64,000 nt of DNA from Bugula neritina (lineage: Eukaryota > Animalia > Bryozoa). Of this stretch, positions 3,228 through 55,313 are shown in pieces. The notes beneath the pieces are model-generated. The model was given only the letters and a program-made list of their open reading frames with translations. It was not told the origin of the DNA and did no database searches. Position numbers and translations under genes: made by a program. The stretch's first letter is position 1. Each line of letters starts with the position of its first letter. The DNA lies in NCBI GenBank assembly GCA_964035545.1, contig OZ037765.1:24551504-24615503 (forward strand), given 5' to 3'.

Positions 3228-4833
<1,606 letters not shown>

Positions 4834-6111
4834 CTCATACTAATACTATTACTATTACTTTTAGTTATACTATAGTAACTGTAGTAAACTGATAAGGACT
4901 TTGATACTGTCAATACTTCAAGTTTAACTAATAATAATAACTGAGATTATGATTAATATTCTGACTATCATTATCATTGCTATTAAAGTTGAATGTTTAA
5001 ACGTTGAAGTTTAACGCCATATCAGTGATTAGGCTGTGCAGTGCATCAGCTATAAATAGCATGCAATGAAAGCTAGCTATAATTAGTATAGGTTTTATAG
5101 TAGAGGTGAAGTCAAAGCCAACCAGAAATTCATTTTCAAGCATTCTGAAATCCAAAATAATTTCAGCACATACTAGCACAGAATTCATCATAAAACAAAA
5201 TTGTTTAGGCACCCAACCTTTAAACAGTATGTAGATAAAAACTAATATAATATATAAGAATATTTTAATCCTGCAGAAGTGAAGTGTGTCAGAGATTCTT
5301 TAAGCAATATTTATTAGAAAATATTCTGGTTCAACTAGCCCTTCCTTAATTTAAAAAAATTCCGATTCTAATAGATTTGATGTTGATACTTGTATATAAA
5401 TTATTGTATCAATACCACTATGAATTGGCTACACAGGTTTACTTTGGTACAAAAGATATGTAAACAAGCAAGCTCCGCCTACTCTACTCTGTCATACTAC
5501 AGCCCTGCTGCTTCTAGAGATTTTGTAAGAATATGATTTGATATGAATCAAAAGGTTAACTGCACTTCATTTGTTCCTGGCTGAGGATCTAGATTTACTG
5601 TCACTCTTTCACTGGACTCCTAGCCACCTTAGTGTAGCCAGATTTTTGAATTGAAAAGCTGTTACATGCAAGTTGTTTTATATGTTAGTTATATCTTAAT
5701 GTGAATTCAATGATTTACAAAGTAATTAATAACATTTTCTCATACAAAATTACTTGGAGCCTGGAGGTTGATTTATAAAGTACACATATTTAATATGTAT
5801 TATGATAGTTATTATAATGTTATACTGCATTAATGATAGTTGAAATTAGTAATATAATCATAATCCTAGTCTTTAAGGTTAAGCTTACTGTCCTGCACTC
5901 TTAGTATCACTAATAGTATTATTTGAAAGCTTACGGTGTTTATTGTGGATGTTGACTGCTGCAGAAACTGACTACTATTTTCAAAATTTAAAAGGAAAAC
6001 ACATTCTTGGTGCAAAAGTGGCAGAATATGTAATACAATTTTTTTCAAATTGAAGGTAAGAAATGGGGTCATTTCAGCATTCATAAGCTGCACATAATAG
6101 CTTATGTGTAT

Positions 6112-6353
6112 ACACACGCACACACTCACACTCTTACGCACACACACACACACTCACACACACACACTCACACACACTCACATACACACACACACACTCA
6201 CACACACTCACACACACACTCACACACACACTCACACACACACACACTCACACACACACTCACACACTCACACACACACATACACTCACACACACACTCA
6301 CACACACACTCACACACACACTCACACAATCACACTCACATAATCACACACAC
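6112..6353. repeat. (CA)n/(CACACT)n microsatellite
   Basis: Directly visible. Confidence 0.95.
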
Positions 6354-8891
6354 AGCCATATTTATTCTAACATACATATATACATAAATCTACGATTGAA
6401 GAAATGTTCAATTATTCAAAGGTTTACACAGTCAGTACATAAAGCTCTGAAGTCATTGTTGTAGTTCCAGTTCTTTACATTTGGATAACCAGGTCATTAT
6501 TTTGGTTTTTTTTGTCAGGTATAACTAAAACTGATGTCTGTATTTAAGTAAAAAAGAAGATGTTTAATCAGATAGCTGAAACAAGTTGTTATTTATACTG
6601 CAATAAGTTATAAAAATCTAGAATAGCGTTTAAAATCATTGGGACTATTGCATAACTTTTTTATAAGTATACGCTACTATTAGGGATTTTTCAATAGGGC
6701 TTTCTTGTTTTGCGCAATAATACAAAAATTAAAAAGCTTGCAAATAGAACTAAAGCACTAGCTAAAACCATTTTTTATAAGGCCAAGTGAGTTAGACTAA
6801 TGAACCTTTGGAATATTTAGCTAGTCACCAAATTGACTACACTGAGTGGTTTAAAGTTAAGTTGAACATATTATTAGACCTGTCGATGTTAAGCCAAGTC
6901 TGTGCTAGGACTTGTATGATGGTATTGTTCTTGTCATGACCTCAGATTGTTCTTGGCAGTAAGCTACAGTGGTGTTGTTTAGTATAATTACTACAAATAT
7001 ACCTCACAAGTCCACGTGTTTAGGCCCTAGTTTGATCGAAGCTCTCTCAAGTTTTCTAAGATCATTATATGCCAGCATATTGAGTATTATCATAAAACTT
7101 GTTATTTTTTGGCTAGTCACCTTGCATTTTGGGTAACGGCCCTAGGTTTTCAGAGTAAACTAAGACTTAAACTGTGCAGGTAATAGAAATACACCCACAT
7201 GATCAAACAGGTGTATAGAAATTGTAAATTGAAGTTGTATTTATCTCAAAGTATAGTCATTCTAAAAATATTTTACTATGCAAAGGTGCATATATTCTCT
7301 AAAACACACCTCTGAGTTAAAGAAATGTTGATGCTATAATATACATGTAGGCATAGCAACCAGACTAGTGAGTTAAGAAGTTGAACTATTGGGATGCATA
7401 TTTATGGTGTCTGAATGTAGCATTAACTTTATAATCACTTGCAATCTTAACAAATCCAGACTCACTGCATGGCTCTTTCTATAATTATTGTTGGTTTATT
7501 CTATTTATACAAAAGAATTTGTAAAATGGTGTGCTAGACAAGCTAGCAAAGTTATACTTACAGACTATTAACCTATTTGTAAATTGTAGACACATTAAAA
7601 TTATTTTAGTGTTGCCGTAATATAACCTGCAATTATGCAGTACTGAAACTTTGCTGCAACTGGGGAAGCTAAATATGTAGTAACAAGCTCCTAAAAATCA
7701 TACATACACTCGGACACACACAACACACACAGGCATTTAAAGGCATGTGCAGGCACACACAGATACGTAATATAGGCATATATGCACAAATATACTAAAG
7801 GTTCTGCTTATTGAAATTAAAATATTTTGTTTAATTATGCCATGACTGAAACATTGATCAAAAAGTTGTTTGTTTAAACAATTGCAATAGCTTATCTTTT
7901 TACCTGCAATACTCATTTACAATCAATTCATTCTGTTGCAACAATTTTTCTGCAACTTGTACTCATTTGATGTTTCTCCCTTGGCAAATATATTTTATTT
8001 TTAGCCCATTTAATTCAATGTTTTGTGAGTAGGCTTATCCAGTTTTACTTGCTTAGTACTGAATTCTAAAGTTTGCAACCGGATTTAAAAAGAGATTAAA
8101 ACTCTGTATTTTGCTTTTTCTTACTAATTTAATATAATAATATTTATATAATAAATATTATATAAATATTAGTTTAGGCCTATATGTAATATAATATAAC
8201 TGCTTATAACTATAACTAATTTACTAATTAATTACAAATCCAGTAAGTGATGTAGAACCTTTCGAAATGATATGACTAAACATTTCACCACTAGTCACTA
8301 CTTAGCCCAGATAGCCTTTCTCAAGTTGTAAACATGTGTATCTTTTACTCAACTAACCCTTCAGGGTTGTATACCGAGTTTATGAGTTGTACATCATCAC
8401 CCAGCTGCTAGATAAGTAACTAGTCCATGTTATAATCACAAATCAGAATGCAATGCTCGTTGAACCAGCTGTAGTGGTAACGATTGTCTAGACTTAAGAG
8501 TATATTTTCAGTCATTATTTCTAATCGGAATTTTCAAGCATTGAATTTAGAAATATTAAAAATTGAGCTCAATGCTTTAAGCTTTAGATTATATGACATT
8601 AGATAATGCACATGGCAAATGCTGTGCAAATATTTCTAAGAAGCATGCAGTTCCACTTGGACTTGCAGGATTTTATATAGGTTATAATAGTGAGATAGTA
8701 AAGTGGTACAAACCCCTGATTGGCTGGATTTTACATGGTTTAATGTATGATTGTTAGTTAAAGTATATTTAAGACTAGACCACTGATTCAGCTCAAGTGA
8801 CTAAAGTTCTATTCTTTAGCGAGATCTGCCATAGTGAGAGCTTCTGACAGCGTACTGTTTTATCTTTGTATTCAATCCAACCAAATTCAAG

Positions 8892-11800
8892 ATGGTAAGT
8901 ATCATTCGAACCATACATTACAATTAATTAAACCTCATGTTTTACATTCAAATTTTTTTTCCTGGTGTCAGTTAGTGGAGATTCAATACGCAATGTTTAT
9001 AAATATTACATGTGAAAATATTTAATTTTGACTTCATTAGACTTGGTTTCATGCAACTTTAGGTTTGATTTTGATGCAAAGATACCAGTTATATAAACTT
9101 AAAAAATGATGTAACTCAATGTCCCCAACATATATTATATCTTGCTGGTGAATAATTCTGATGTGTAAATAACCTGTTAAAACTGGGTTTCATTAGTTTT
9201 ACTTTTTTGTTTCAATTTTTATAGTTTAATTGGGTACTTGCAATGTGCAAAAATTTCAGTTATTGTCAATGTAGAAGGAATTTCCAATTCTAGGTGAACT
9301 TCACTGTAGACCAAATCCGTGAACTCATGGATATTAAGACAAACATTCGAAATATGTCTGTGATTGCTCACGTAGATCACGGTAAATCTACTCTCACAGA
9401 CTTACTGGTCAGTAAAGCTGGAATCATCTCGTCTGGCAAAACAGAAGAACAGCAATTCACTGATACTCGCCAAGATGAGCAGAATATTACCACCAAATCT
9501 ACGTTAGTAAAACACAATAACCCTCTTTATGTCTTAGTGAATTGTTATGTGTTACATTGAAATATCATCATATATTTATATATTTTATTAGGATTATGAT
9601 ATGCGCTAAAAATTTCAATATGCAATTTAGTATTTGTATCTAATGTACCGTGAAATACTTAGTGATGGAATTCAAAGAGCAAGTTTGCTACCACATAGTA
9701 AACTTTATTTTTCAATTTAATCATAATATGCATGTGTATCAAAGATCTAGCTTGTGTTGGTTGAAAAAAATATAATAATCTCAAAACACAAGCTACTGAA
9801 TGTTATTTTTCTCTAGTTTAGATAACTTCTTTTGAATTCTTTATGTATCTGTGTAAAAAAATTTTCAGGGCTGTCTCTATGTACTATGAGCTTTCAGAAA
9901 AGGATTTAGATGCCATTCAGCAAGAAACTGATAAATCTCATGGGTTTTTGATCAACCTTATTGATTGTCCTGGCCACGTAGACTTTGCAAGTGAAGTCAC
10001 TGCTGCTCTTCGAGTTACAGATGGGGCCCTCGTGGTTGTTGATTGTGTGTCAGGTAATTTTCCCTTGACCTACAAAACATTATTTTTCACTTTCACTTTT
10101 TTATTTAGAAGTTGATAAGTTTTACTTCAAGAATGTCGAGTTGTCTTAATACAGGAAGTTTAAAAATTGGCGACTTGCCACCTACATAATATACTAAAAA
10201 ATTTATAACCATCAATAGCTAACCAAATCTGAAATAGTGTGTAGGTAACTTTAGACCTCATAAGGCTTGAGTAACAACAACATTCAAAGGGCTACTAAAA
10301 GTTGAACTGATTCTTATAATATATATAATGCTCTTCAGTTGTTTGTCAGCACAACGCTAACAAAAATTACAGTAGTTTTTCAATCTTCAATTGCTTCTTT
10401 CTAATATGTTTTTTGTCTCTTTAGGTGTCTGTGTACAAACAGAGACTGAGACTTGAGAAATCAAAAAGAGCAGATAAAAAACTGTTTTATCTTGTAGTTT
10501 TGGCAAAGTGGTTTATTAAGATATACTGTTAAAATTCAATAAACAATTATTTTAGGTGTCTGTGTACAAACAGAGACTGTAATGAGACAGGCCATTGCTG
10601 AGCGGATTAAACCTGTGTTGTTAATGAACAAAATGGACAGGGCTTTTTTGGAAATGCAGATGGGAGCTGAGGACATGTACCAAGCTTTTCAGCGAATCAT
10701 CGAAGATGTTAACGTGATTGTTTCTACCTATTGTGAAGAGGATGGACCTATGGGAGATATTCAGGTGTGTAGGCCATCTTTAATTGGTTTGTGGTGAGGC
10801 CTTGTTGCCTTAGTTCAAGTTGTATGTTTCTATTTCCTGCATTACAGGTCAGCCCAGCAACTGGAGCTGTTGGCTTTGGGTCCGGACTGCACGGATGGGC
10901 ATTCACCTTGAAACAGTTTGCTGAAATGTACAGTTCCAAGCTTGGTGTTGATGAAAAAACGCTGATGAAGAAGTTGTGGGGAGACAGTTTTTACAATGCG
11001 GAAACCAAGAAGTGGGATAAGACCGATGCTGGTGGTGGGAATAGGGCTTTCTGTCAATTTATTCTGGATCCAATTCTGAAAGTATGCGGAGTGTTGGGAG
11101 ATCGATCGTGCTTTTTTAGTTTTGTTAAAAAGCATTAGCTTTTGCTTGCATTTTAATATTAGGAAATAGTTATGTCATCACATGTGCTGTGCTTCTGGTT
11201 GAAGTTTTGGATATTGCACTATTTTTACAGTTCAGTCTGTGCATATAAAATTGCCTTTATACCTTCACGATTTTCGGTCAGAATTTCAATTTGGCCGGGT
11301 TGAAATTTCACTGAGTTGCATTGCATTGTAAAAGCCACTCATAAAAACTTTTGTACTGTGATAACTTAATCGGCCAATTTTAGAATAGGAGTAATAACTC
11401 CTTGTAAACATCGTTATTTAGTTATTACTTTGGCGATTAGACAACGTACTTATACGGTTATAATTATATAGCCTACGCCTTCTCAGTTATCGCTTTTATG
11501 CTGTCCGCTTCACTAATTAACGACGTTTACAAAGGGCATCAAGTAGCTATTATGCGAGTCAAATTTCAATTTCAGAAAGTGAGCAACCGCATCAATATGA
11601 TTTCAAAGAGTTTCAGTTTGACTATAAAGGGGTACCCGGACAAGCCTTATTAACTTAAACTCGGTACTTTTTTCAGCAGAGTTATAAACGCAACTAAATT
11701 CTTTGTCCTATCAACTAGCCTACTAAGGAAATCCTTTCTAGTTGATTATAAAAGTTCTGCACTGTCAAATCAGCAAGTAGCGTGATAGATTTGTGATTTG

Positions 11801-14800
11801 GAAAATTAACCAGAGAGCATAACTCCTTGTCTTAAGGAAAGAGAGAGCAGAAAGGTTTCCAGGTGTAGATAGTCTTTATTTCAGCAGAAGATATAGTATA
11901 AAAGTCAGTGGTGTGGCCTTGGGGAGCTCTAGCGGTAGATTGCTCTACACTAGAAAACTCACCTCCTTTTATACTCTAGAAGTCGAAGGCTGCAGAAGTT
12001 CAGACGCCCCGACTTCTAGAATATTTTATCTGATCATCAGTCAAAATCATGCACCTCGAACTTCAAGAGCCCTAAATCGGTTGCCCTGAAATCCGGGACT
12101 CTCGACCTCAGCCGAGATCGAATTTAAAAAAAGAAAGCGAGCTGTATAAAATATAGTTACAAGAGAAGACAATTTTAAAGTTAACACCAAAGTCTACTGC
12201 AGTATGTCACATGGAAGAATGATAATTTATTTTATTTGAATAAATTCTATACATGGTACAAAACATTTTTTTTTATGAATGAAAAATATGCTAAAGGCTG
12301 TGCTGTTTTCTCTGAACATAATGGCTATGTGTTTCCAGCTCATTGCCATCTTCTTGAAGCCAATGAACTTTTTCGCAGAACAAAATTTAAAGTTTAATTT
12401 TGAGCATTTTTTCATGGTTATAAAAAGCCTACAATTGTGATTTTATCTCCTCAATAGTTCGTCATATAAGTCGGTTTTGTTAAATATTTTTAGTTTGGTT
12501 TTGCAGCACAGTTTTTTAGTGTTTGTGGTAGCTATATCATGGTTTAAGGTCTTCAGCACCACTATGGAAGGCACTAAAGAAGATGCCCATAAGCTGATCG
12601 AGAAAATGGGTGTCAAGTTGACTGGAGATAATAAAGATTTGATAGGAAAGCCTTTGATGAAAGTGGTTATGAGAAAGTGGCTACCTGCCGAGGATGCCAT
12701 GCTTCAGATGATCACAATGTACCTGCCTTCACCTGTTACTTCCCAAAAGTACAGAATTGGTAAATATTTTTACTGTTTGACAGCTTTTTGGTTTTGCTGT
12801 TCATTTAAACATTTCGACTATCTAATTTTTTGCCTGTGTAATTACCTTCACACTACTTTAGTTAGGTTCCTGGATTTTTTTCTCTTCTATATCTTAGTTA
12901 TAGAACAGCATGTAAAACTTTGTATTGTGAAAATCATAAACGTCTTATCTTGAATGAATCAGTTTTTAAGTAGTGATTTGCTGTTGGTTTTTAGAACTTC
13001 TGTATGAAGGACCTAATGATGATGAGATTGCTGTTTCCATGAAGAGCTGTAACCCTAAGGGGCCAGTAATGATGTATGTGAGTAAGATGGTGCCAACATC
13101 TGACAAGGGCAGGTTTTATGCTTTTGGCCGAGTTTTCTCGGGAACAATTGCAACTGGACAAGAGTGTCGTATTATGGGCCCCAACTATGTCCCTGGAAAG
13201 AAGGAAGATCTTTATGAAGAAAGTATTCAAAAGTAAGTACTATTGTACATTATAACTCAATTCACACTGCCCAAGCTCTAGATGCAGGCTAATTGTTGAT
13301 GTATTCATATAATTCAGAACTGTCTCTATGATGGGCCGCTATTTTGAGCCAATTGAAGATGTGCCATGTGGAAACATTGTGGGATTGGTTGGAGTGGATC
13401 AGTACTTGGTTAAAACTGGAACTATTACCACATTTAAAGATGCTTACAATATGAAGGTTTGTTTGTTATTCTTATATCCAGTGCTACTCATTGAGTTTAA
13501 AAATGAAATGAGTAGTTTTTTAAACTGTTGCTAATCTTGTATATATAGTTTGAATAGACATGCAAGTTTTACTTCTATTGAATAAAGTTACTAATTGTGC
13601 TTGTGGTAGCGAATTTAAATTGTTTCTTGTTGCCCCATAATTCCCGCTGCTGCTATGCTTTGAGCGCAAATCAAAAAATATTTTGCTGCAACTTTCAATT
13701 GTGGTCTATGGCCAAGGTAGATGACAATAGATTGGTTTTTCTTGGTAATTTAAAAAAATACCATTTGTATTTTAAAATACACCAACAACATAATATTTTG
13801 TGCAGTGAACATAACTTATTGTAGATGATGAAGTTCAGTGTACACCCAATTGTTCATATCGCTGTTGAATGTAAAAACCCCTCTGATCTCCCTAAGCTAG
13901 TTGAAGGCCTAAAGAGATTGGCCAAGTCTGATCCTATGGTTCAGTGTTGCATTGAGGAGTCAGGTGAGCACATCATTGCTGGTGCTGGCGAACTTCATTT
14001 AGAGATTTGCCTGAAAGACTTGGAAGAGGACCATGCTGGTATTCCTCTCAAGAAATCTGATCCTGTTGTGTCATACAGAGAGACCGTTGCAAAAAATTCA
14101 AGCATAACTTGCTTGTCGGAGTCTCCTAATAAGCATAACCGATTATTTATGACGGCCTCTCCTATGCCTGAGACTTTGCCTGAAGTCATTGAAACGGTAT
14201 TGTCTTTATTCATCGATTCATGCAATACAACACCTTCAACTTTGCTAGTGACATCAGTGTTTCTCAAGAGCAAATTTTGGTCACATGTGGAATTTCTGTA
14301 GTAAATTTATTCACTTGCTGTAAGAATAAGAACTACTACATAGAACCCCTGGCAAGCTTCATTTATCCAGCTTTGAAACATTTATATATAATATTCTTAG
14401 CTCACTGCAGGCTATTCAGTGATTGTACGCTCAAACAATTTTGTTCCATATTAAATTTTATGCCCATGCTGACTTTCATTGCATGCTATTCCTAGCTGCT
14501 GTAGCACACTGACTCCCCGTTCACCGATTGCCTTACCTTACGCCATAACAGCACAAACAAAATGGCGCAGCTGTTATGTTTTGTCAACAGGCTGTGACCA
14601 GTCATAATAAGGCTAATTCTTGTCTGCGCTGAGTTGTGCGGCTTTGAATATTATTAACTTATTTGTCGAAACATTCTTCTCAAAGATATGATAGAAATGC
14701 TATTGACTAGATAAAGCAATTGAAAGAAAATATCTCTGTTAAATACATGTGTCTTTAAAATAATTGTGCAAACTAATTTGAATAATAAATATTTAAACCG

Positions 14801-16577
14801 TCTAAATAATTTTTAGGTTTTTGTTTGCGTGCTTTTGTGATTAGGGAAAGCTAGACTTTTAAGCTGAGTTTAATTTAAAGAAGCCGGATAAAGATTTTTT
14901 AAGCTTTTAAAACTTTTGAATTGGTTAAATTAAATCAACAATAAGCGATTACGATAAACTAGCGAAAATATTATTTTAATTTTAGTAACAGTTCAACTCT
15001 ACCCAATGCGAGCCTGCCTTGTTTTTTTTAATTAAGCACGATTCAGCCCGGATGTTACCAAATAGGGCGGACATTTGCTGTTAAGGCGTATGGCAATGTG
15101 TGAACAGGGGTTATGATACCACAGACACCAGAGCCAAACGAAAACATCATCAGCATGAGTACAAATTTATTATAAAGCAGTATTGTTTAAGCATGCAACC
15201 CTCAAACAATCCGTAAGTACTGCAAGAATGAAGTGTGTCAAAGATTCCCAAGTATCATTTCCCAAATTTGTGCACATCCATGATTTGTATAAAAATATAT
15301 GTTATCTTCTATAATTTTGCTTTATATGCAGGGACTCTGTTTGCCATATATTTAGGGAGAAATAAACCAAAAACAAGATGCTGAAGAAAGAGCCGGCATA
15401 CTGGCTGAAGCGTTTGATTTTGATATGAACGATGCTCGTAAAATCTGGTGTTTTGGTCCCGATGGTACAGGTGCAAATATGCTTGTAGATGTCACTCGTG
15501 ATGTTCAATGTTTGAGTGAAATTAAAGATAGTGTTGTTGCCGGCTTTCAGGTATAATTATTTTTATCTGCATGTGTAAATAACGTTTTGAGATTGTTTGA
15601 GGTAGGTTATTTGGAAGAAAAATTTATTCTATGCAGCTTATCCATCCTTAATGAAGTTTTAGTGTAGACTGATGTGCAACTTTGCTTTAGCAAGTAACAT
15701 AAATATGCTATATTTTACAGCAGTAATACATTAGTTGTTTCACGAGATTTTATTCGTCATTTTCACAATCATCCACCATTCTGATTAAGTGGGCCACCAA
15801 AGAAGGCGTGCTGTGTGAGGAGAACATGAGAGGTGTCCGGTTTAACATTCATGATGTCACTCTTCACGCTGATGCTATACACAGAGGAGATAGTCAGATC
15901 ATCCCTACCACAAGAAGATGCTTGTATGCCTGTCAGCTGACTGCTCAGCCCAAACTTATGGAGCCTGTGTACCTTTTTGAAATCCAGGTAATGAGTTCTG
16001 CCGCAATGTTGTGCCTATTTGTTATATGTGGATCTGATACGTTCAATTGTTTCAAGATGAAACTGGTTTTGATATCTTTTAACTGAGCCTAATTTAGTTA
16101 TCACTCAGTTCATTTTTTCATCTTCTTTACTTTCAACAAACTATTGTGTAATTGCAGTGTCCTAATGCAGCTGTGGGAGGCATTCATAGTGTTGTGGGCC
16201 AGCGGCGTGGGAAAATTGAGAACGAAAACCAGTTGACTGGCAGCCAGCAAGTGATTTCTGGTTTTTTACCAGTCAATGAGTCCTTTGGTGTGTATGGGTG
16301 TTGTCTATCACTCTTTGTTTGCATTATAGTTAGAAGCAACTGTGAAGAACAAAACTGCATTTCTCGTCCTTTTGTTTTTGTAGGGTTCACATCTGCTGTA
16401 AGAAAAACTACTGGTGGGCAAGCTTTCCCACAGTGTGTGTTCAATCATTGGCAGGCTATGCCCGATGATCCTTTGAAACCATGTTCTAAGTCTGGTGTTG
16501 TAGTTCGTGAAATTAGGGAACGTAAAGGCTTACAAGAACTTGTACCTGCCCTGGAAATTTTTAATGACAAATCATAA
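8892..16577 (+). CDS. EEF2: Eukaryotic elongation factor 2-like, divergent paralog (13 coding exons, frame open throughout)
   Basis: Exons 8892-8894 (ATG|GTAAGT), 9294-9502, 9869-10053, 10556-10764, 10848-11081, 12549-12759, 12995-13232, 13318-13456, 13825-14196, 15356-15550, 15790-15987, 16159-16287, 16384-16577. Motifs [61 protein letters not shown]. Confidence 0.9.
14515..15110. mobile_element. MITE-like insertion in an eEF2 intron
   Basis: Imperfect terminal inverted repeats: CCCCGTTCACCGATTGCC..TACGCCATAACAGCA and TGCTGTTAAGGCGTATGGCAATGTGTGAACAGGGG. A weaker outer inverted repeat lies at ~14425-14471 / ~15150-15195. Confidence 0.55.
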
Positions 16578-17141
16578 TGTTCATGCTGTGCCTGCCATCG
16601 TGCACAAGGAGATGAGTTTCAAAATTCGTTTTCAAAGCACTACTTATTTATTTTATTATATTTGCTTTTCCACAGCTAGTTGTATCATGGATGCGTTGGT
16701 TTATTTATTTATTTAATCAATAAATTAAATCAAAAATTAGATAATGTGGCCCATTTATTTGCCGAAGGTAAATGTGGTGGAGGGAAAGGCCCAGAATCGT
16801 CAGCAACAAGTCAGTCAATTTACATTTTTCTGTGGAGAAGGTTACACTTTTTGTATTGGGATTTTTAACTCACCTATAGTTATCTTCTCTTGTCATTACT
16901 TGTATTAAGGGTGCACAACTCTGTTCAAGTATAATAGTTGGATTGATATAAATGTAGTGGCCTGAATGAATGCAACAAGCATAAAAGAGTGTGTATAAGA
17001 GAGAAAAGTGAGTGAGGATTGTGGACGAAGAATTGAGAAAGGAAAATAAAGATAAAACTCTTGTATATGAACGTAATGAAATGTCTTAGTGAGTGCTAGC
17101 CCACGATCGTAGACTTCAAAGCACCACCGTCTTTCATACAC

Positions 17142-17290
17142 CAGGGTTGGGGTCAATTACATGTGGATGTTCTTAATTTCAATTACAAAAAATTGTCAAT
17201 TATAATTACATGCAGTTGACATAAACGTAATTAATTACAATTACATGTTAATATAATGAATTACAATTACTTTTTGTTCTCATGAGTGAC
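17142..17290 (+). mobile_element. Possible left end of a hAT-type non-autonomous element; no right end seen
   Basis: CAGGGTTGGGGTCAATTAC followed by an array of AATTAC motifs. Confidence 0.4.
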
Positions 17291-17701
17291 AAATAAAAGT
17301 TACATAATCTCACTTCTGACGTCCCAACTGTGGTGGCTCGTGGAGCTACCAGCAGCGTAATAACGGGAAATGTTATTTCCCCCACGGGGTCATAGAGATG
17401 ACCCGAAACAACAAACAACCAATCAGCAGGACTGACAGTTCTTAGTAGTAGCTGCTTCCCGCGATTTAGTTAGTTGAGTTTAGGCTGGTGAACTGTGTAG
17501 ACTGGAATATTGTAATGGATTTCAGTAATGCAATTAATAATTAGTTTATATATCGATCGAAAGGGTCGACTCTATGTTATCTTATTGTGGAGGTCGACTA
17601 CATCGACTCCCAGCCAAAGTACATCTTATGGTCGACAGTGGCACCAATAATACCAGCCAATCACGAAGGACTGTTAATTGATAGCAGGTGGAGCTAGCTA
17701 G

Positions 17702-20640
17702 TGTCAGATCAGAGAATACACAGTACTTTATATTTTTGCAGAGTAGATACTGCACAGCAACTTGATGTATTTACAGAATGATATGCTAATAGTGATTATG
17801 ATTGAAACTTATGGTTTGAATATATGTGCATAGCTTAAAAGCTTTAGTAAAGCAGTGGAAAAGAAACTCAAACTTTATCATGGCCTTGCAAAATTTACTG
17901 GGGTAGACTCCAGCATGGCTTTGCAAAATAATTTACCAGGTATATAGCAATAGTTTTCTACGTAGCAAATACTTATTTTATTGACGAAAAAGGAAAACGA
18001 TAAAACGGATGCACCCTCATTAGGAGGTTTGCATCCTTATAAGGACCGACATCAAGATGGAAAAAAAATGTTTATTTTATGAGATCGGAAATGTTAAGGC
18101 AGTTGCATCTTCATTAAGACCTACATTAAGACTGAGAAAATTATTTGCTAATGTACATAATAGAAATATCAAATAGCCTCATTGCTATGAAGCTTGCAAG
18201 AACTGTGGGAATATTTTCACTAAAAGTTAGAAGTAGAGTTTCTATTAGTTATGTCATAAGTTGTTAAGCTAAAGTGTTGATATATATATCATTATTTTCA
18301 GAAAATTCTTTAAAAGAGCTATATCCTTGATGGAAGACATGATTATACATGTACTGTCCTTTGTGTTTAATTCTTACTTCTGTACTTTACAAGTTATGTC
18401 TCTGAGATATTCTGTCAGCTCTCTAAAATATGGCTTTGGCGATGCTAAGGTTTGTTTGAGATTTCCAGTAAAATGGCTGCTGCAACAGGTTGATGCAATT
18501 ATAAATTCTTATATCTGCTCCACCACGGTATGTAGGCTACAGTCTATCTACAACATCCAAGAAAGAATATAAAGTACATTCGAAATTATATGATACATGA
18601 GGCCCAGTAATTAAGTGAAGTTAAAAGCTCAAATGTACAAGTTTGGAGTAAGTTGAATATTTGGTCTCGCATATAAATTGCTTGATGCATTATTTAATAT
18701 ATGACACATGGTTTTATAGCTTCTTTAGATAATGCAAATGATATTATTTAATAGTGTGGCTTTTAGATAAATAATTGTGTTAGGATAGCACCACATGCCA
18801 TGTTCACGTGTTGAAATTTGTAATATTTACTTAAAGTAAAACATTAATTGATGAACAAAAGGAGATGAATAAAAAGCTGAAACATATGACAGATGCTGTT
18901 CATAAATAGAGATACACATATGTATATGTGTAAATATTTATTTACATTAACATATAGATGATATAATGTTTTAAAGGCTTAATAAATTATTTGACATTGA
19001 TCAGCCCGTTACAAAGGTCAACACGTGAGCATCGGGTGATATATTTTATGATATTAAAGTTTTAAATGTTATTCTTTAGATTAAGAATTACTGTACAATC
19101 AATGGTGATATAAGCCTACAACATACAAGAAATGAGCCAATGATAATAGATCCTTCTTACGTCAATCCCTATCTTAAGCTGTAAAGCTGCCAACATACCT
19201 GGTCAAGTTCTACGTCAGTCTGCCGCCGGTTTTCATTGGCCAGTTATCGTCGGTATCCGTAAAATCTGAACCATTGCCAAGAAGATTTAGTATAAGAGGA
19301 GCCAAATTTCTGAAAATAGAAGAGTATTGGATGGAAATTGGAGGAAGTATTGGATGAAGATATTATAGAAGATAAAAGGCAGCTAAGGACAATCGGAGTA
19401 TAGGAAATATAGTAGCAGTAATAATTATATTAAGTGTTAGAAGGAGCGGCAGGAAAAAGCTGACTGACTAATACAAACACTAACAAATATATTGGTTGCA
19501 GTAAGTAATATTACAACTTCATGCTTAAGGGTATCGCAACTTCTTTTATTATTTGAACTAATAAGTGTATTAATTTTTCTTTTGAAAGCAGCACAAACTT
19601 GTTGAAGAAATTTTGTTTGAATTGATCTATTAATTTCTTTTAAGCAGCATAAATTATTTGAAGAGAAACTGTTGATTTGATTTACTGATTTTAAAGCAGC
19701 ATAAATTTATATTTAAATTGAGAAATTTATTTCTAGTTTACACAAATCTATATTTGGGAAATGTTTGGATTGAGAAAGTATTTGAATTTTTAAAGCTGCA
19801 TAAATTTATATTTGAATTGAGAAATTTGTTTCTAGTCTACACAAATTTACATTGGAGAAATATTTGAATTTTTAAAGCTGCACAAATTTATATTGGGAAA
19901 ATATTTGAATTTTAAAGCTGCACAAATTTATATTTGAAAATTATTTGGATTGAGAAACATTTGAATTCTAAAGCTGCACTAATTTATATTGAAGAATTTA
20001 TGTCAAGACTGCATGAGTCTATGTTAAAGCAAATATTTTATTATTGATGTTTCAACTACAATTCTCATTGTGTATTTAATTCTGTATAAGTCTTTTCTAT
20101 CCCAATTGTCAAACTTAGCTATTTATGTTGCTAGTATAACACAGCAAGATTTCAAAGGGTCGCTAGGACAATCTTTGTTTTGGTTCACTCTTGTAATATT
20201 TTGCTATTGTGATTTGCTTGCTTTGTCATTATCATTAAATAGATATATATATATTATACAACACGCACATAATTATATTATAATTTCAATTCTTCTGGGG
20301 GAGCAAATCCCAAATTTGTCTCACAGAATATTAGCCCGAGTGCTAACCATTACACAATATACATAGAACCGCATATATACATTACTACATGATTTCCAAA
20401 CCATAATATTTGTCGAGCAAAGATAACTCTTATCTTTAATTAATTAACTGCAAAATTATATAGAAATTTTGAAACTAAAAGCTAATGAATAATTTCGCTT
20501 CATTGTAACTGACCAGTCTGACTAAATTAGAAGTTCAATTTCAATTGATTCAAAATTAATAATTTAGCTATATAATTATAAATTACAAAATTTACCCAAA
20601 ATTTATAAAATAATAATATATTTTAAATTTTTGTTCGACA
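17702..20640 (+). mobile_element. 2.9-kb non-coding element with TGTC...GACA ends inserted in the Gypsy 5' LTR (copy 2)
   Basis: Flanked by CTAGCTAG on both sides (17694-17701, 20641-20648). Removing it restores colinearity with the 3' LTR. Homologous to 1-1863. Internal ~38-bp tandem array at ~19580-19990. Confidence 0.85.
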
Positions 20641-20868
20641 CTAGCTAGGTGGAAGCATGCTGAGTAGCTAGGGCAGAGCAGCTTAGGACTTGGTTTAGAG
20701 TAGTTGTGTACATAGTGCTCGGTATTATGTAATCGTATAATTCATGTTAGTAGTAATTCAATTCTTGTATCTTGTAAATAATAAACTTGTTATAACGTAA
20801 ATAACCTGGTGTAGTAACTTTGTATAAGTCGACCCACATAATATAGTGAATTGAGAAATTCACTACAG

Positions 20869-20888
20869 TGGTGGCAGCGGTGGGATTC
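20869..20888 (+). promoter_or_regulatory. Primer-binding site, tRNA-Leu
   Basis: TGGTGGCAGCGGTGGGATTC, one base after the LTR, is complementary to the 3' end of metazoan tRNA-Leu (GAAUCCCACCGCUGCCACCA). Confidence 0.85.
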
Positions 20889-20928
20889 CACTTTGTACAA
20901 ATGCTCCTAGCCAGGGAGTAGAAAGAAG

Positions 20929-21803
20929 ATGGCTGACAAGGACGACGCGCCCGGACAGGAACCTGTAGCAGTAGAGGAGGATCACATAGGCGGCCCAGCG
21001 CTGCCTATGGACAGGTACCACTTGCGGGCTCCCATCTTCTCAGGAGAAGAAGATGTGGAGCAGTTCATCACTGAGTTCAGTGATGTGGCGGCCATCTGCA
21101 GATGGCCGAATAGGGTTACTCTGATCCAGCTACGGTTATGTCTGACAGGGCCGGCTAAACCCTATGGGATAAGCCCGAATGTCGGTGACATATTTGAGGC
21201 ATTGAGAGCTCGGTTTGGATTAACCGCTCAAGGTGCTCGCGTGCAACTCCAGGGGCTTAGGAGAAAAATATTAAGACTAACCTGCGAGAGCATGCGACCG
21301 TAGTCGAAGGGCTGGCACAAGTCGCCTATGGCGACTTGCTTGCTAATAGTCGACAGAGCTTAGCACTGGATGCATTCCTCCAGTCTATTAACAACCTCGG
21401 GTTGAAACAGCATCTGCTGGTGGCTGAGGTTGAGACCATGGAGAGAGCTCTAAGGCTTGGAAATGCCTATTTCCAAGCCGACAGTGCGTGCCGGTCTGGT
21501 ACGACAATACAGCAGGTCAGAGCAGACGACGACGTGTCGACGTCGCCGGCAAAGACAGCTGTAAATGTCACCAAGGCAACAGCCAACGAGCCGACTAGCT
21601 TGACCACAAACCTGGTTCGAGAGTTGCTAGCTGAGATCAGGCAACTACGCCAGCAGTCAACAGCCGAGCGACCCAGAGGGTCGTTGACAGCTGTCGACGA
21701 CAGATGGCGCCCCGTATGCTGGGGCTGTGGTAGGGGTGGGCACTTCATGCGAAGTTGCCCCCATGGTAGAGGGAGGCAGTTAAACGGCAACGGCCCACGG
21801 TAA
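20929..21803 (+). pseudogene. gag: Gypsy gag (frameshift near 21270)
   Basis: APIFSGEEDVEQF capsid-like start and CCHC knuckle CWGCGRGGHFMRSC. Confidence 0.85.
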
Positions 21804-22199
21804 CTTCCGCCAACCGTGGGCCCCGGTTTCACCCTCCAAGGCAGAGGCCAAGGCCCAAACCCCACCGGGTGAGGAGGTCGCCTTCGCCAGAGTGGCAAGC
21901 TCCAAGGAGAGTTAGTAGGCCGCAAGGCCAGCCAAAACCTCCGGCTTGGGCACTCTAAAACCGCTTTGAAGGTTTGCCTGATGAGGGAGTGTACGACGAG
22001 TAGGAGCGAAACAGTGATTTCCCTCGGTTGCCCACACGAGCACCAGTCCGAGAATTCACTCGGCCGCCCGTGTGTGAGCAAGACCGAGATGTAACCTGCT
22101 TGCCCACGCGACGTCGACGACCCCCTCGCAACCGAAAAGCACAGGTGTATCCCCAACTCCATGCACATGAGGTGTCGCCTCAAGAGGCGAACCACTCAG

Positions 22200-25100
22200 T
22201 GAGCGCTCAGCTATATGGAAGCAGTTATTTCCTCCCCAGCAAGCTTGCCGGCAAAGCTGTCACATTCCTGTTGGATACTGGGTACACCACAAACTTACTG
22301 AGTTGGCGTCTATTCTCAGTGCCAGGGACAGGGCTAGCCTAGAACCATATGAAGGGGAGCACGGCACGTTAGCGGACGGGTCATGTATTCCTTTCTATGG
22401 GGTAATTCAGTTGACTGGTAGAGTCCGTGATCAGACGATCAGCGAGGCCTTCATCGTCAGTCAACTCAAAGAGGACGCCATCTTGGGCATGCCATTTCTG
22501 AAGCGACACAGGTGCTACATCGACTTTAACAAGTCGGCGGTAGTGATGGCCGGACGTGAGCTGGCCTGTGTCGACCGATTTGGCCGACCCTTGGTGGGGG
22601 GAGTGCAGGTGGTACAGCGCTGTACTGTACCTGGGCGCTCCCGTGCTACAGTTCGCTGCAGAGTGAACTGTAGGGAAATCTCCGAGCTAGGAGTGGTGGA
22701 AGGTGCACTGGGGGGCGTCCAGCTCGCTAACAGTTTGAATAGACTGGATGAGCGGGGGGAGTTCCTGGTCCAGTGCGTGAATCCTTTCACGGAGCCGGTA
22801 GAATTGCCGGCTGGGTCTCTAGTGAGGAAGTTCCACTCCGTACAGGAGGAGGATGTTGGGCCCGCACTGGAGACAGCGGACGAAGCCCGTGGGGTACTAG
22901 AGACGGCAGGGGGCCGGTGCCTGAACACGTAGCGGAGTTGTACGAGGATGCCTGTGATGGCTGCGAGAGCAAGCAGAAACGCCTGGTGATGGCGCGGCCA
23001 CTCTCCGAGTACAAGGACGTGTATAGTTGCGGCGACCATGACATGGGTCTGACTAGGGCTGTCTGTCATGAGATACTCCTGGCGGCGAAGGCGGCACCGA
23101 TTCAGCAGCCGACCCGCCGGTTAGGTCCTGAGAAAGAAAGAGAAGTGAGCCGACAGGTGCAAGACCTTCTGAACCGGGACCTGATTGAGCCAGGCCATGG
23201 GGCCTGGAGTTCTCCAGTTGTCCTGGTTCGGAAAAAAATGGGAGCCGGAGGTTTTGCGTTGATAATCGCAAGCTAAACAGCGTGACCATTCAGGACGCTT
23301 ACCCTCTCCCTAGGATCGATGAGTCGCTCGATGCCTTAGCTGGTAGCAAGTTCTTCAGTATGTTGGACTTGTTAAGAGGGTATTGGCCGGTGCCCTTGAG
23401 TCCTGAAGCACAGGACAAGGCTGCATTTATTACGGGGGATGGGCTCTGGAAATGGAAGGTGCTGCCATTCGGACTTACGTCTGCACCGGCTACCTTCCAG
23501 CGACTCATGGAGCAGGTCTTGAGTGGGCTACACTGGAAGACCTTGCTCATTTACCTCGATGATGTCATTGTCATCTCCCCCGACTTCGACACACAAGTCA
23601 GTCGACTCAGGGAGGTGTTTGACAGACTTCGAGCTGCTGGTCTGAAGCTCAAGCCCTCTAAGTGTGCGTTACTGCAGCGCCAGGTCTAGTACCTCGGCCA
23701 TGTGGTTGGTCGAGACGGGGTCGCCACTGACCCCGAGAAGGTACGGGCTGTGAGGGACTGGGCTGTTCCTGTCGACCTCCCTGAATTGCGGGCATTCCTG
23801 GGACTGGTAGGGTACTATTGTAAGTACATACCAAACTTCGCAGAAATTGCACAGTCGTTAAATCGACTGACAGCAAAGGGGGTGCGATGGCAGTGGACAC
23901 AGGCCGAGCAGAAGGCATTTGACCACCTGAAGGATTGCCTGGTGGAAGCACCCATCTTGGCGTATCCTGACCCAGCAAAGGAGTACATTTTGGATACTGA
24001 TGCCAGTAACCATAATGTGGGGGCTGTGCTGTCGCAAGTCCAAGATGGTCACGAGGTGGTGGTGGCTTACTATAGCAAAGCCCTGTCGGCGCCTGAAAAG
24101 AACTACTGTTCAACCAAGAGGGAACTCCTGGCAGTAGTCAAGGCGGTCAAATATCTTAGACCATATCTGGATGGGCGTACAATCTGACTACGGACGGGTC
24201 ATGCGTCTTTGATATGGCTGTGTCGAGGGGCTGAACCATCAAGCCAAGTGGCGCGCTGGCTGGAAATTCTGGCAGAGTTTTCTTATCGGATCGAACACCG
24301 ACCCGGTAACAAACAGGGTAATGCCGACGGACTCAGCCGCCGCCAGGCAGATGGGTGTAAGCAATGCCAGAATGTCAAGTGCAGGAATGGTGGACCCCCT
24401 CGCTCGGACGTTGAAGAACAGTTGGGGAAAGCGGGTGTATACAGCTGGGAGGAAGGACAACTTCTGTCCGAATCCTCTAATGAGGCTGGTAACAACCTTC
24501 ACGCAAACCCCACGCTGCTCAGGAACGTCAAGAAGATGTGTCGGCTCCAAGCTACTTTACCAGGGGTGGTAGCTGACCTAGTCCGGGCCAAGAAGGAGGG
24601 ACGGCGGCCGAGTGAGGCTGAGCAGCGGGTGAAGAGTGTAGAGTTTAAATACTTCTGCGACCGCTGGGACTCTCTCCAGTTTAACAGCGATGGGCTGCTG
24701 ACGATAATGTTAGCAGCCGGCACCAATTGCCGTGAACGAGAGAGGGTAGTCTGTCCGTCCGCTCCGAGGTGGGAGTTGATCTGGGACACCCATAAGCAAG
24801 CTCATGCAGGAAATGGACGAGTGACTAGGTGTCTTCAACTCCAGTGGTTTTGGCGCGGTATGACCCGGGATGTCCGACTTCGGGTGCGGAAGTGTGAGGT
24901 AAGCCAAGCTAGTCAGCATGGCCGCTCCACTGAGACCGCAGGGAAGCGTCGCTTCCATGCTGGTCGTCCGTGGCAGGTAGTTGCTGTAGATCTGGTAGGC
25001 CCCATGCCCACAACAGTGAGAGGTAATAACTGGATACTAGTATTAACTGACCATTTCACGCGGTGGGCTGATGCATTATCTATTCCAGATGCGTCGGCCC

Positions 25101-26275
25101 CTCGGTGGCCAGAGCCTTGGATCAGCAGGTATTCTGTTATTTCAGCTTGCCGGAGCAGATACACTCTGATCAAGGCGCCCAGTTTTAGTCGCAACTTATG
25201 AGCGATCTCTGTAAAATGTGGGGGGTAAGCCAGAGTCGGACGACCCTGTATCACCGGCAAGGGAACGGGGTTGTGGAGCGGAACAACCGAATGCTAGGGG
25301 ACTCACTTAGAAGCCTGCTTATCGGTAGGAGCCAGGAAGGGTGGGACTTGGTGTTGCCGCAAATTATGCGAGCTTACCGTAATACCCCTCACTCCAGTAC
25401 ACTGGAGACCCCTAATTTTCTCATGCTGGGGAGAGAAACCTGGGTTCCTGAGCACGTAACCTATCATGTTCCGGCTCCAGAGAGCAACGTCCACGGTCAC
25501 GTGGACGAGCTCGTAAAATGCATGGGGACGGCTCACAAGGTGCTACGTGAGCAGCAATGGCAAGTCAGGAGTGGTGACTCTGATGACTCCCCCCCCCCTT
25601 GTATAAGGTGGGAGACTGGGTCTGGATGACCAGTCATCGCCGGCGGCGCAGACAGGGGGCTAAGTTGCAGCCGAAGGTTTTTATTGCGCGATTAAGGTGA
25701 TGCCTAATGACACATAAAGTGGAACGGTCTGGACAAGTGTCGATCCAGAACGAAGCACGGCTGAAACCTTACTGGGCGAGTCATGATGCAGCAGGTCAAG
25801 CACCTCCTCTCTTAGAGCCCGCTAGACACCTTCCTATGAGGGGGCGAGGCATGGTGTATAAAGAGAAATAGAGGAGATACTGCAAGATCAGGAAGGAGCG
25901 GCCGACGCGCCGCCCGACTCGCCTCCCGACTCGCCTCGGCCACTTCCACTCCAAGAGGAGGAGGCCGACATACTGGAAAACAATTCAGAGCCGGCCCCAC
26001 CACCAGTGGAGCCGGCCGACGGGCCTATCGCCCCGGATAAGATGGCATTTCCTCAAATTCATAAGGAAGGGGCAGCTGGGAGGGGACCACCCGTACTGGT
26101 GGATCCCCCCCGTACTGGCAACACCACCCGTGGTGGAAGGGTCACCAGCAGCAGCAAGTTCCCCAGTAACGTTGGAACGTAGTCAACGTACCAGGGCGCC
26201 ACCATCTTATTTAAGAGACTTCTTGTGCGACTTGGTTGACATGCACAGTATTTTGTAACATGTTGACATGGGCAA
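22200..26275 (+). pseudogene. pol: Gypsy pol (protease, RT, RNase H, integrase) with several frameshifts and stops
   Basis: FLLDTG; PFGLTSAPATFQR and YLDD; DTDAS..GAVLSQ; VAVDLVGP, DHFTRW, NGVVERNNR; C-terminal RSQRTRAPPSYLRDFLC. Confidence 0.92.
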
Positions 26276-26493
26276 AGAAGTCTGGGGGGCGAGGTAATTG
26301 ATAGCATGCTGCCCAGTGGCGGATAGAATAGGTCCGCCGGGGGTCAGCAGAGCAAAGCCAACTAAATAGCGTATAGGGTGTTACATAACCACTCTAGTTG
26401 TGAGCGCTCTTTTCAATTGCAAACAGGCAGCACGTCTTTTTGCAGTGATCAATTTGGCTACTACGAGTCCTAAGAAAACAGATAGCAAACATT

Positions 26494-32841: not shown

Positions 32842-35800
32842 ATGGGATCTTTAATGCGAAGTGAGCAAATGGTTTTATGCCAGCTCTTTCTTCAATCTGA
32901 GTCTGCATATTCTTGCGTATCAGAGCTGGGTGAACTCGGACTTGTACAGTTTAGAGATGTAAGTTAATAGCAGCTTTTACTAAACTTTTATATTCACAGG
33001 TAAAGACTTGCTTGAATCTGGTGCTTATTGGAACTAATTTTCTTTTCAATATTTCTTCTACAGCTTGTCTGCTTTTTGCTTGTGTTCCAAGTATAGAAAT
33101 CCCAAGAAAATCTCGTGGATCTTGCTTATTCTTGGGATTTGCCCAGTTCATCACAGTTTATATATTACAGCTTAACCCAGATGTTAATGCCTTTCAAAGA
33201 AAATTTGTAAGTGAGGTGAGAAGGTGTGATGAGATGGAAAGAAAGTTGAGGTATATTGAAAGAGAAATTAAGAAAGATAAAATACCAGTACTAGATCTTG
33301 GTGACAACCCTGACGCACCCGCTCCCCGAGAAATGATTGATTTAGAGGTAAGCCAATAAGTTATTCGAATTTATTTAAAATTAAAAAAAAAATTATATAA
33401 ATGCATTCTGGTATAACAGTTTATAAGCAACCCACGACAGCCTCGTACAAATGTATTTTCAGTTGGTTAGTTACAAGAATGAACTACCAGTACAGGCCAG
33501 AATCTAGTTGTCCTTACTATCTTTATTCTATTATCAACTATTGCTTTAAACATTATTTTATCAGTATATCTTGTTGAACTTGTCATCACGTGCTATGATC
33601 TGCATTAGTCATGGTTATTTTTATAGATAAAAACATTGCTAAATGGTAGTATATTGCTCGCTCTATACTTGGGAATCTCAATTGGAGCAGTTTAAGAATT
33701 TAAATGACATGTTGAATACCTCAAATATTTTTCGTTTTTATCTTAGGCCAGTTTTGAAAAACTTGAGAATGAGCTTCGGGAAGTTAACTCAAATAATGAA
33801 GCCTTAAACAAGAATTTCTTGGAGTTGACGGAGCTGAAGCATATTTTACGAAAAACTCAACAATTTTTTGATGAAGTGAGTTGATGTTATCAGCTTTTTA
33901 CGTTCTAGTTGGTGACCAGTCAATATTTATTGAGTATTAACATTAGGGTAGTGTAATGCACTAGTACAGTAGATATTACACTGTCATGCTTTATCAGCAT
34001 GTCTGTCCATGAACCTACAGCAATCAATGCATGTAGCTATGCAAGTCTAATGCCTATAGATCAATGCGTTTTAGTGGTCCATTTTCTTGAACAGTTTCAG
34101 TGGTTAGTAGCAGCTATGTACATGTATATGCAATTAACTGTGATCAAAGAAACGTGATTAGGCTCCAACAATATCAATAGTTTGTTACAAATTTATCTGC
34201 CATAGTTTTCTTTTTGAATGTCTGAATTAGTATTACTTAGTATTAAATTGGGAGACTGTGGTGATATATATATATATATATATATAATTTTGTCCTGGTC
34301 ACAATAATTGACATTGAGTTTGAAGAAGTTGGGCTAAGGGCTAATAATTTTTAGTTTTTTTGTCAGTTTTCAATAACTTTTTAATAGGTTTTTATAAAAA
34401 TTGAGAGGGATGGGCAGTAAACTAACATTCATTATTCCCAATACCTTGATCATCAATTGATAGGCAACCAGATTTGTTGTTACCACATGGCAAGTTGAAG
34501 CCACTACATCCTAAATTATTTAAAGCATTAGTAAACTGTTTGAGCTCCCAAAAAGTTTAATATGACTCTACATTCTTTTATGTTCAATTAAATTTTACTT
34601 GATCTTCTCACATTAACTAGTGATTTGCATCAGAAGGATATGTTTTTAAATTTTTATAGCTTTCTGCTGAATTAAACTAATTATAATTAGTGTGCTCTTT
34701 TGCTCACCCTGATCTTATTACCTTTTCTACTGGCTGTGGCTAGAATATATAATATTTTTGCTAACAAATAGTTTATAGGACTTTACAGCTATTATTGGGA
34801 CTGTTAGGATGTAGTTTCAAATCTGGGTGTGGGTAGTGCACATGTTTAGTGAATGCAGGTTGACACTCAGAACCGAACTTTAAGGACTGTTGATGATGAG
34901 CGTACGGGTTTGTTGTCCCCTGATAACTCGGTATCTGCAGTCGGTCAGAGACTAAGGTAAGCTGGCCTGATTACCGAGGCGGCTGTTTCATCAGACCAAC
35001 TGACAACAGTTAAACTCTAACCTCCTCTCTTCTCTTACGACTTTTTTCCTACTTATATTTAATTAGATGTGTCTTTCTTTGTCGTCAATAGCATGAGAGA
35101 AGCCTGCAGGCTGATGCTCAAGAGGCATTGGTGCATCAGGATCAACTAGAGCAGCAACAGCAGGCTCTGCACCTGGGGTAAGACTATGTTTTGCTGGCAT
35201 AGAGTAACCGTGGCAACCTATGTGGATATTTTTCTTCTACTTCTCGGAATGCTCTGTCTATTACCGTCGGCACATTAAGGCACTGTCCCTCGTAGTGTAC
35301 CGCATGTCCAGTAATTCATATCCCTTTTTATAGCATGGCTTTCGGTGTTGTCAGTTGGTGTGATGGATCATAGCCTTCCTTGGTTTGCTAACAATAGATA
35401 TTATCATCCTTACAACTTTTTTTCATCTCAATGAAGTCATAACAATGTAGCTGACCTCCCAGCGTATACATGTATTTAGCTTGTAATCAAAGTTGGCACC
35501 AGATCAATCTTATCTTAGCATTCTTATGTTCAATCAATGTTGTATATTTTCTAAGTGCATTATATACTGTACAGTATACAGTATACAGTATACTTCCTTC
35601 TTACCATACTAATATCCTGTTGTGGAGCCCTTACTGTCATCTTTCTACTATAAATTGCAATATGTTATAAACAAAAACTGAAAATTTGGATCTTTTTTTG
35701 TTCTTTAAATGCCTACCTTATGTGAAAGTTGTTAGTATTATGTTTACTGACTCCAATTTTTTCATGTCTATTTATTTGATTACTTATAGTTTTGTGGCTG

Positions 35801-55000: not shown

Positions 55001-55313
55001 ATCATAAACTGTCAAGAAAAATAAACAATGGAAATCAATTTTAAACTGCTAATTTTAGAACATAACTAATTTAATTATTGATGTATATCGATAATTGTTC
55101 GGTTATATACAGAAGAAACCCCTAAGTTTTAATTTCAGTAGGGTGAAGAAAACTTATATGTAGCAAGTAAGCAAGTAAGCAAGTAGCAATGTTGTAATGC
55201 AGGCTTTGCGATACCTGTTCTAATTTTCGTTTTTCTCTTTCTCGCAATATATGCCGTTTTAAAGCCTGATACGTAGTGCGAGTCATTTTTCTTCTTTCTA
55301 TAAGAGCTGGCAT
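52034..55313 (-). CDS. GPS2: G protein pathway suppressor 2
   Basis: MPALIERRKM..ALKRHILRERE and EKSKLFAQLKRILE match the GPS2 N-terminal coiled coil. Exons 55313-55215, 54780-54643, 54176-53970; four further Pro/Gln-rich exons are approximate (~53872-53759, ~52999-52894, ~52605-52510, ~52194-52034). Confidence 0.85.

Follow-up and report, generated by a model that had tools for sequence, protein, structure and literature searches.

The window analysed here, a 64-kb stretch of Bugula neritina DNA (contig OZ037765.1; coordinates below are positions within the window), carries an eEF2-like gene on the forward strand at 8892..16577. As the original prediction had it, 13 exons splice in frame without a stop: all 12 introns are GT-AG and the joined exons give 2517 nt, open throughout and encoding 838 aa plus the stop codon. 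The protein belongs to the eEF2 sequence family, with domains G, II, III, IV and V in order, an 838-aa length and eEF2s as its best matches, and a solved eEF2 was the best match of exons 2 and 3. No second eEF2 was found in the 64-kb window. Judged from sequence, the window copy is a real, constrained and fast-evolving eEF2 paralog, a member of the family which lacks two canonical translocase features, the G2 consensus within a full-length switch I and the GGQ that follows HRG in the diphthamide loop.

All exons lie on the + strand. The stretch 8818..8894 comprises an acceptor AG (8818–8819), part of the 5′ untranslated region and, as exon 1, the ATG, which stands directly before GT (coding part 8892–8894). 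The G domain motifs follow, with G1 (GKST, residue 31), an S38L change, a remodelled switch I (approximately 9432–9500) and the G2 Thr67 (9489–9491) in exon 2 (9294..9502), G3 (DCPGH, residue 103) and VDFA in exon 3 (9869..10053), G4 (NKMD, residue 157) in exon 4 (10556..10764), and the G5 region (GSGLHG, residue 213) together with what we take to be the G′ subdomain in exon 5 (10848..11081). Exon 6 (12549..12759) contains G328E, a change private to the window lineage, domain II is encoded by exon 7 (12995..13232) and ends in exon 8 (13318..13456), and exon 9 (13825..14196) covers domain III with SVHPIVH and loop 2, ESPNKHN (SPNKHN at residue 576). Domain IV in exon 10 (15356..15550) carries Y652C and N654S, both common to the Bugula neritina protein model KAF6032980.1 (P0007). 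Exon 11 (15790..15987) encodes the diphthamide loop, with the His696 codon at 15880–15882 and G699D and G700S at 15889–15894. Domain V, the fastest-changing part, occupies exon 12 (16158..16287) and ends in exon 13 (16384..16577) with the C-terminus and stop; an AATAAA at 16719..16724 (+) is a likely polyadenylation signal.

Departures from the eEF2 consensus

Animal eEF2 is nearly invariant. Against a reference of 88 dereplicated non-bryozoan and seven bryozoan full-length eEF2s, the window copy was changed at 29 of 375 near-invariant sites. The maximum among 141 full-length eEF2s was six, a figure biased low as the same sequences define the site set. In an independent control, the Bugula canonical piece P0009 from outside the defining set, 0/184 near-invariant sites were changed, compared with 14/185 in the window copy and 16/185 in P0007 over the same range.

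The motif changes listed in the original prediction were all present in the sequence and stood above the background among the fetched proteins, with the exception of MYLPSP, which aligned bryozoan canonical eEF2s also read and which is therefore no change of the window copy. Switch I was full-length in 268 of 268 other fetched proteins holding the motif and is two residues short in the window copy. While this deletion is real, the form from which it was predicted to derive was not that of the lineage, whose canonical copy reads DEQDRCITIKS (P0260) rather than DEQERCITIKS. Judged from the extra letters of the canonical copy, the simplest account of the change is a D65N substitution with Arg-Cys deleted. 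The canonical G2 consensus, R-G/C-I-T-I, becomes Q-N-I-T-T with the Thr kept. The G3 region was DSPGHVDFS in 176/176 fetched proteins holding the motif and is DCPGHVDFA in the window copy; loop 2 was KSPNKHN in 246/246 and is ESPNKHN here (K575E).

Two further changes had not been predicted. Beside the diphthamide His696, HRGGGQ (223 of 226 fetched proteins) has become HRGDSQ, the two altered residues corresponding to human G718 and G719 (human numbering, H715 to G719, was taken from alignment with the human 858-aa chain), and QYLNEIK has become QCLSEIK. Much else was kept. As in canonical eEF2 (bryozoan P0141; Watersipora P0127; Bugula P0009/P0140/P0260; human), with which it shares length, domain order and intron positions, the window copy has G1 GKS/T, G3 DxPG with the catalytic His, G4 NKxD, G5 and the G2 Thr, the diphthamide loop HxDxxHRG as defined in PMC6143161 (HADAIHRG, residues 691–698), the SPNKHN of loop 2 and the loop 3 Glu (in CLSEIK) that is paired with Arg697; the neighbouring positions carry K575E, Y652C and N654S. 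At 10631–10654 the window reads NKMDRAFLE, the majority eukaryote motif (NKMDRALLE), unlike the bryozoan NKLDLAILT, and has six clustered non-synonymous differences relative to the canonical copy.

Canonical copy, transcripts and related lineages

Five of the nine listed sequencing runs were compared (X1, X2, X3, X6 and X9, with X4, X5, X7 and X8 left out). In DNA run X1, window-matching contigs (depth 107–119) showed 0 differences in seven of eight listed pieces and one difference in the other; X1 is possibly the source sample and hence not independent of the window. The same run contains a second eEF2 copy (depth ~130–140) with six extra switch I letters and Ser38. As both copies occur in X1, the changes are genuine, and the genome carries a canonical gene as well as the divergent one. 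An error of assembly or sequencing in a sole eEF2 gene, a caveat of the original prediction, has nothing in its favour and is refuted by the X1 match and canonical copy, the deletion type in the four other runs, and the 40 of 90 derived residues which P0007 and the window copy have in common.

The proposal of a DNA-level duplicate with introns kept gained support from the canonical copy in X1 and from canonical and divergent models in Bugula. The Bugula neritina annotation places canonical pieces (KAF6032976, KAF6032977) and the divergent KAF6032980 on contigs of 267,345 nt each, and these equal lengths together with the near-adjacent accessions point to local duplication. The closest named proteins to exon 9 were the Bugula neritina models P0007 (91%) and P0008 and P0009 (88%), and the window copy is ~80% identical to bryozoan canonical copies. 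P0008 is a canonical-type eEF2 model on an 18-kb contig that leaves the frame right after HRG, which is probably an assembly slip or haplotig. As to whole-genome duplication as the origin of the copy, a term search of a preprint on such an event in bryozoans (10.64898/2026.09.16.752000) returned no mention of Bugula or eEF2.

Retention in related lineages had been proposed as a check, and the switch I deletion does recur: exon 2 without the six letters was found in X2, X3, X6 and X9, four of four other runs compared and representing at most three samples. Across introns 1 and 2, the divergent copy in X2 runs colinear with the window (1078 nt, with 98 substitutions and 33 gap letters), and the same introns of the canonical X2 copy do not align to the window at 80%. 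Intron divergence of these lineages from the window is ~11% (38/344 nt in an intron 1 piece). Databases label P0007 as plain 'eef-2', and it matches the EFG II–V Pfam models. Over 637 residues it shares 86% identity with the window protein; it carries invariant-site changes of its own, and on sequence grounds it is most likely the ortholog of the window copy. Trees of aa 434–838 with 14–20 chosen rows returned (P0009,(window,P0007)) with support of 86/88, the window–P0007 pair receiving 100/99. Path lengths were 0.29–0.34 for the divergent copies versus 0.05 for the canonical one; the divergent copy evolves at about 5–6 times the rate of its canonical sister. An origin predating the split of the sampled bryozoans was not rejected by the approximately unbiased (AU) test (p = 0.24).

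A C-terminal P0007 search returned no further divergent-type protein among the best 120 of 7533 matches (best others 66–67%), and an exon 2 search returned full-length switch I types only, among the best 120 of 1841 matches; neither result shows absence. The metagenome scan gave no Bugula-like contig, with a best DNA identity of 77% among the best 80 of 539 relatives from ~37 of 64 parts. Two of its loci belong to one public assembly and are similar in coverage. L001 (296–7776) contains a tandem pair of canonical bryozoan-type eEF2 genes that are nearly identical. L019 (149–3900), on a contig without the switch I exons, encodes a divergent bryozoan-type eEF2 with the same intron positions, exons 5–13 open and 18/254 invariant sites changed; its loop 2 reads SPNLHN, the Lys being lost, and HTDGSHRGGGQ has changes beside the His. 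The L019 changes fall mostly at other sites than those of the window copy, although L019 has a few residues, among them M477 and V432, in common with both Bugula-type copies. A single origin for the window copy, P0007 and L019 was recovered in 0/200 bootstrap trees but was borderline in the AU test (p = 0.058), and L019 is either a duplicate that arose independently or an ortholog of old date.

Runs X6 and X9 were taken as RNA by guess, none being on record as RNA, a choice supported by GT-AG joints at exon borders. In X9, the contig of record 24 (depth 40) lacks intron 1, the joint falling at GT-AG; it contains exon 2 without gaps and has a loose end which reads as exon 3. Canonical contigs in this run reach depths of ~5700–6700. 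Record 24 of X9 and record 16 of X6 both start matching at 8820, just after a pyrimidine tract and AG. A 30-letter loose end in X9 agrees with 5638–5667 in 26 of its 30 letters (21/30 at the next-best place), which suggests a candidate upstream non-coding exon ~3 kb away at 5638..5766 (+; donor GT at 5767–5768; start possibly further 5′), with four upstream ATGs in the putative leader and a junction that is inferred rather than directly aligned. Homology to the canonical copy begins only at about 8815, and the duplicate therefore likely has its own promoter. Unlike canonical eEF2, the window copy combines loss of the switch I Arg and replacement of the GG after HRG with low transcript depth and a probable new upstream exon. 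The exon 4 acceptor is also present as a 30-nt duplicate (10420..10449, +), 131 nt 5′ of the true one, which would lead to a stop after 10 codons if used; an X3 contig lacks this stretch.

Constraint on the divergent copy

Selection was judged by protein-level tests and simulations. Differences between the window and the other lineages number 5 in the 209 nt of exon 2 and 38 in the 344 nt of the intron 1 piece (p = 1.2e-4), and two of the five exon differences, at positions 9365 and 9380, are synonymous. The remodelled part of exon 2 (103 nt) has at most three differences (p = 0.003 at 11% divergence, 0.014 at 9%). Conversion by the canonical copy cannot account for the conservation of this copy-specific part.

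Between the window protein and P0007, 19/254 invariant sites differ compared with 70/382 other sites (p = 1e-4), a contrast which holds under within-exon permutation (p = 0.00035). It is also seen in exons 10, 12 and 13 alone (5/58 invariant versus 44/114 other sites, p = 3e-5), which are too distant from the canonical copy for fresh conversion to explain their constraint. Neutral simulation at 11% divergence predicted 144 differences and 6.5 stops, where 89 and 0 were observed. Introns showed 8–11 indel events in 765 letters, and with this indel rate 27–34 disabling changes would be expected; none was observed, and even for one third of the neutral time 9–11 are expected, giving a probability of zero of 1e-4 to 1e-5. 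Replacement residues were also used by other eEF2s in 37 of 115 cases (16 expected), and conserved sites changed at ~0.33 of the neutral rate, i.e. were spared about threefold.

Stops, frameshifts and broken splice sites were absent from the window gene and from the 636 colinear residues of P0007, and the protein-level pattern departs from the neutral one expected of a pseudogene in that conserved sites are spared. The retained frame and spared conserved sites therefore indicate a constrained, fast-evolving paralog rather than a plain pseudogene. The suggestion of an incipient pseudogene is disfavoured by the open frame, by the sparing of conserved sites in two lineages and by the spliced transcript.

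Divergence from the canonical copy is uneven, at 3/70 and 3/79 residues in exons 6 and 7 and 18/42 and 25/64 in exons 12 and 13. That the middle exons are nearer to the canonical form than the ends could be due to constraint or to patchy gene conversion. In exons 12–13, 38 of 107 residues differ between the window copy and P0007 versus 24 under neutrality (P = 0.001 at 11% divergence, 0.02 at 13%, 0.11 at 15%); as the region was picked post hoc, this excess is a lead only.

Function, analogues and neighbouring genes

Our preferred reading, to which we give a probability of roughly 0.5, is that this intact, spliced eEF2 duplicate serves as a minor, cell-type-restricted elongation factor, predicted to bind GTP and the ribosome and to translocate slowly or with weak coupling to GTP hydrolysis. 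The retained G1, G2 Thr, G3 His, G4 and G5 would preserve nucleotide binding, ribosome coupling would be weakened by the missing Arg-Cys of switch I, and G699D, G700S, Y652C and N654S around His696 would probably lower diphthamide modification. The duplicate would have gained its own upstream exon and promoter, and the cells concerned might, as a guess by analogy to flies, be those of the germline. A possibly impaired GTPase had been predicted, and in part this stands, as the switch I Arg is gone. However, the catalytic residues of the G boxes are all kept and DCPG fits DxPG, the G3 consensus published in PMC3150367, where the Thr of RGITI is said to coordinate Mg. With G1, the G2 Thr, the G3 DxPG and His, G4 and G5 retained, a dead GTPase is not indicated. 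A literature search for data on the switch I Arg of EF-G gave nothing, and its putative role here is taken from the RGITI consensus.

Several observations weigh against this reading. Divergent transcripts occur at depths of ~40–90 versus 5000–25000 for the canonical form, but contig depth cannot rank expression and the 'low' transcript level is therefore only a hint. A deletion-type X6 contig (record 19, depth 89) continues from exon 2 into intron 2, and splicing of this intron may be incomplete in X6. The overall rate of amino-acid change, ~0.6 of neutral (89 versus 144), is far above what a working translocase would be expected to show. At invariant sites, 11 changes are private to the window lineage and 10 to that of P0007 (aa 203–838). 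The 11% figure comes from X2, X3 and X6, runs which may not be of the P0007 lineage; in one check that is consistent with such a link, exon 10 in X9 has 11 differences in 100 nt, a stretch where P0007 differs at eight residues. The P0007 model is without exons 1–4, although the canonical gene is likewise fragmented in that annotation. DCPGH and VDFA may be confined to the window lineage; in X2 there is a single exon 3 contig, with nine differences, although contigs can merge close copies.

It is possible, at odds well short of even, that the gene is a redundant duplicate in slow decay, in which weak selection removes truncations and misfolding (avoiding a dominant-negative product) and conversion refreshes the middle exons, with no function of its own. 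Such decay would accommodate the low transcript depth, the read-through of intron 2 in X6, the stray duplicated acceptor, the four upstream ATGs and the lineage-private changes at invariant sites, and the contrast between near-canonical exons 6–7 and distant exons 12–13 is as patchy conversion predicts. However, it fits poorly with the want of disabling changes even on a third of the neutral time, with constraint in exons 10, 12 and 13 far from the canonical sequence, with conservation of the copy-specific switch I itself, and with the persistence of a similar copy, L019, in another lineage. A wider scenario, which we regard as doubtful, is that bryozoans evolved, once or repeatedly, a second cytosolic eEF2 with rewired switch I and decoding-centre loops, an animal counterpart of bacterial EF-G2. 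Such a factor would translocate largely uncoupled from GTP and free of diphthamide, serve in special cells or during microbial attack, and have a positively selected domain V.

Attack also figures in an improbable alternative, a back-up eEF2 which, through the changes beside the diphthamide His and the fast change of domain V, would be a poor target for microbial ADP-ribosylating toxins or small-molecule inhibitors and so sustain translation when these are present. G700S, Y652C and N654S are common to the window copy and P0007, L019 is also altered beside the His and has lost the loop 2 Lys, and the excess in exons 12–13 would fit such a role, but that excess was chosen post hoc and fades at 13% and 15% divergence. 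According to PMC13012071, human G717R, two residues from the His, abolishes diphthamide and confers toxin resistance; the equivalent Gly (G698) is nevertheless kept in the window copy, and the switch I deletion would be left unexplained. Changes of G719 may also give resistance; a literature search for G719D returned 0 occurrences. A storage role, in which the protein would be GTPase-dead and would clamp the dormant ribosomes of eggs, larvae or resting zooids, appears more improbable still. The shortened switch I and relaxed domain IV tip residues would suit it, and eEF2 is reported in dormant egg ribosomes of zebrafish and Xenopus in a preprint (bioRxiv 10.1101/2021.11.03.467131). However, the same preprint assigns the vertebrate role to a general, broadly expressed eEF2b, the catalytic residues of the G boxes are all kept in the window copy, and storage would need near-stoichiometry with ribosomes, whereas transcript depth was low in the runs compared.

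No description of P0007 or of a window-type divergent eEF2 was found in the literature searched, most subscription journals and supplements lying outside the search. Duplicates of animal cytoplasmic translational GTPases are described in PMC4342817 as nearly identical isoforms. The same paper covers EFL1/Ria1 and Snu114, which are eEF2-derived paralogs with new jobs, but these duplications pre-date the eukaryotic ancestor and are far more distant, whereas the window copy nests inside bryozoan eEF2. Bacterial EFG II (EF-G2) is likewise a second copy beside the canonical factor and, like the window copy, has a relaxed RGITI with Thr/Ser, G1, G3, G4 and G5 kept (PMC3150367), a likeness that is a functional analogy only; some EFG II paralogs are weak translocases, according to PMC12172202. 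Membership of EFG II was considered and rejected, as this is an ancient bacterial subfamily whereas the best matches of the window copy are eEF2s and it is a young animal duplicate, which makes EFG II an analogue. Archaeal aEF-2p and parabasalid EF-2 variants are also EF-2 paralogs changed at domain IV loops, and in aEF-2p the loops and His are lost, co-occurring with dph gene loss (PMC6143161). This type was rejected too, as in the window copy the His, the Arg and the first Gly are retained, together with the core of loop 2 and the stabilising Glu defined in that paper. Testis-enriched translation factor duplicates of Drosophila are also divergent second copies of housekeeping factors, but eEF2 itself is single-copy in the fly (PMC5354226).

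An in-frame copy with altered switch I and diphthamide loop offers natural variants for two questions: to what extent eukaryotic translocation tolerates uncoupling from GTP hydrolysis, and what purpose diphthamide serves. If it is merely a decaying duplicate, the gene is chiefly a caution for bryozoan phylogenomics and annotation.

Introns 5 and 9 of the gene hold high-copy repeats at 11176–11703 and 14344–15135, whose depth in DNA runs sums to as much as 6e5. Upstream, a pure (CAG)n tract of ~1.6 kb (3230–4840) ends 800 nt 5′ of the candidate first exon. Downstream lie LTR-retrotransposon-like remains with broken frames (20900–26300; reverse transcriptase domain at 23189–23686), a gene for the 116-kDa (a) subunit of V-type ATPase (32955–41750, +), a DTW-domain exon (50391–50681, +), G-protein pathway suppressor-like exons that score below the Pfam cut-off (54439–55421, −) and a single-ORF PIG-L gene (58315–59049, +).

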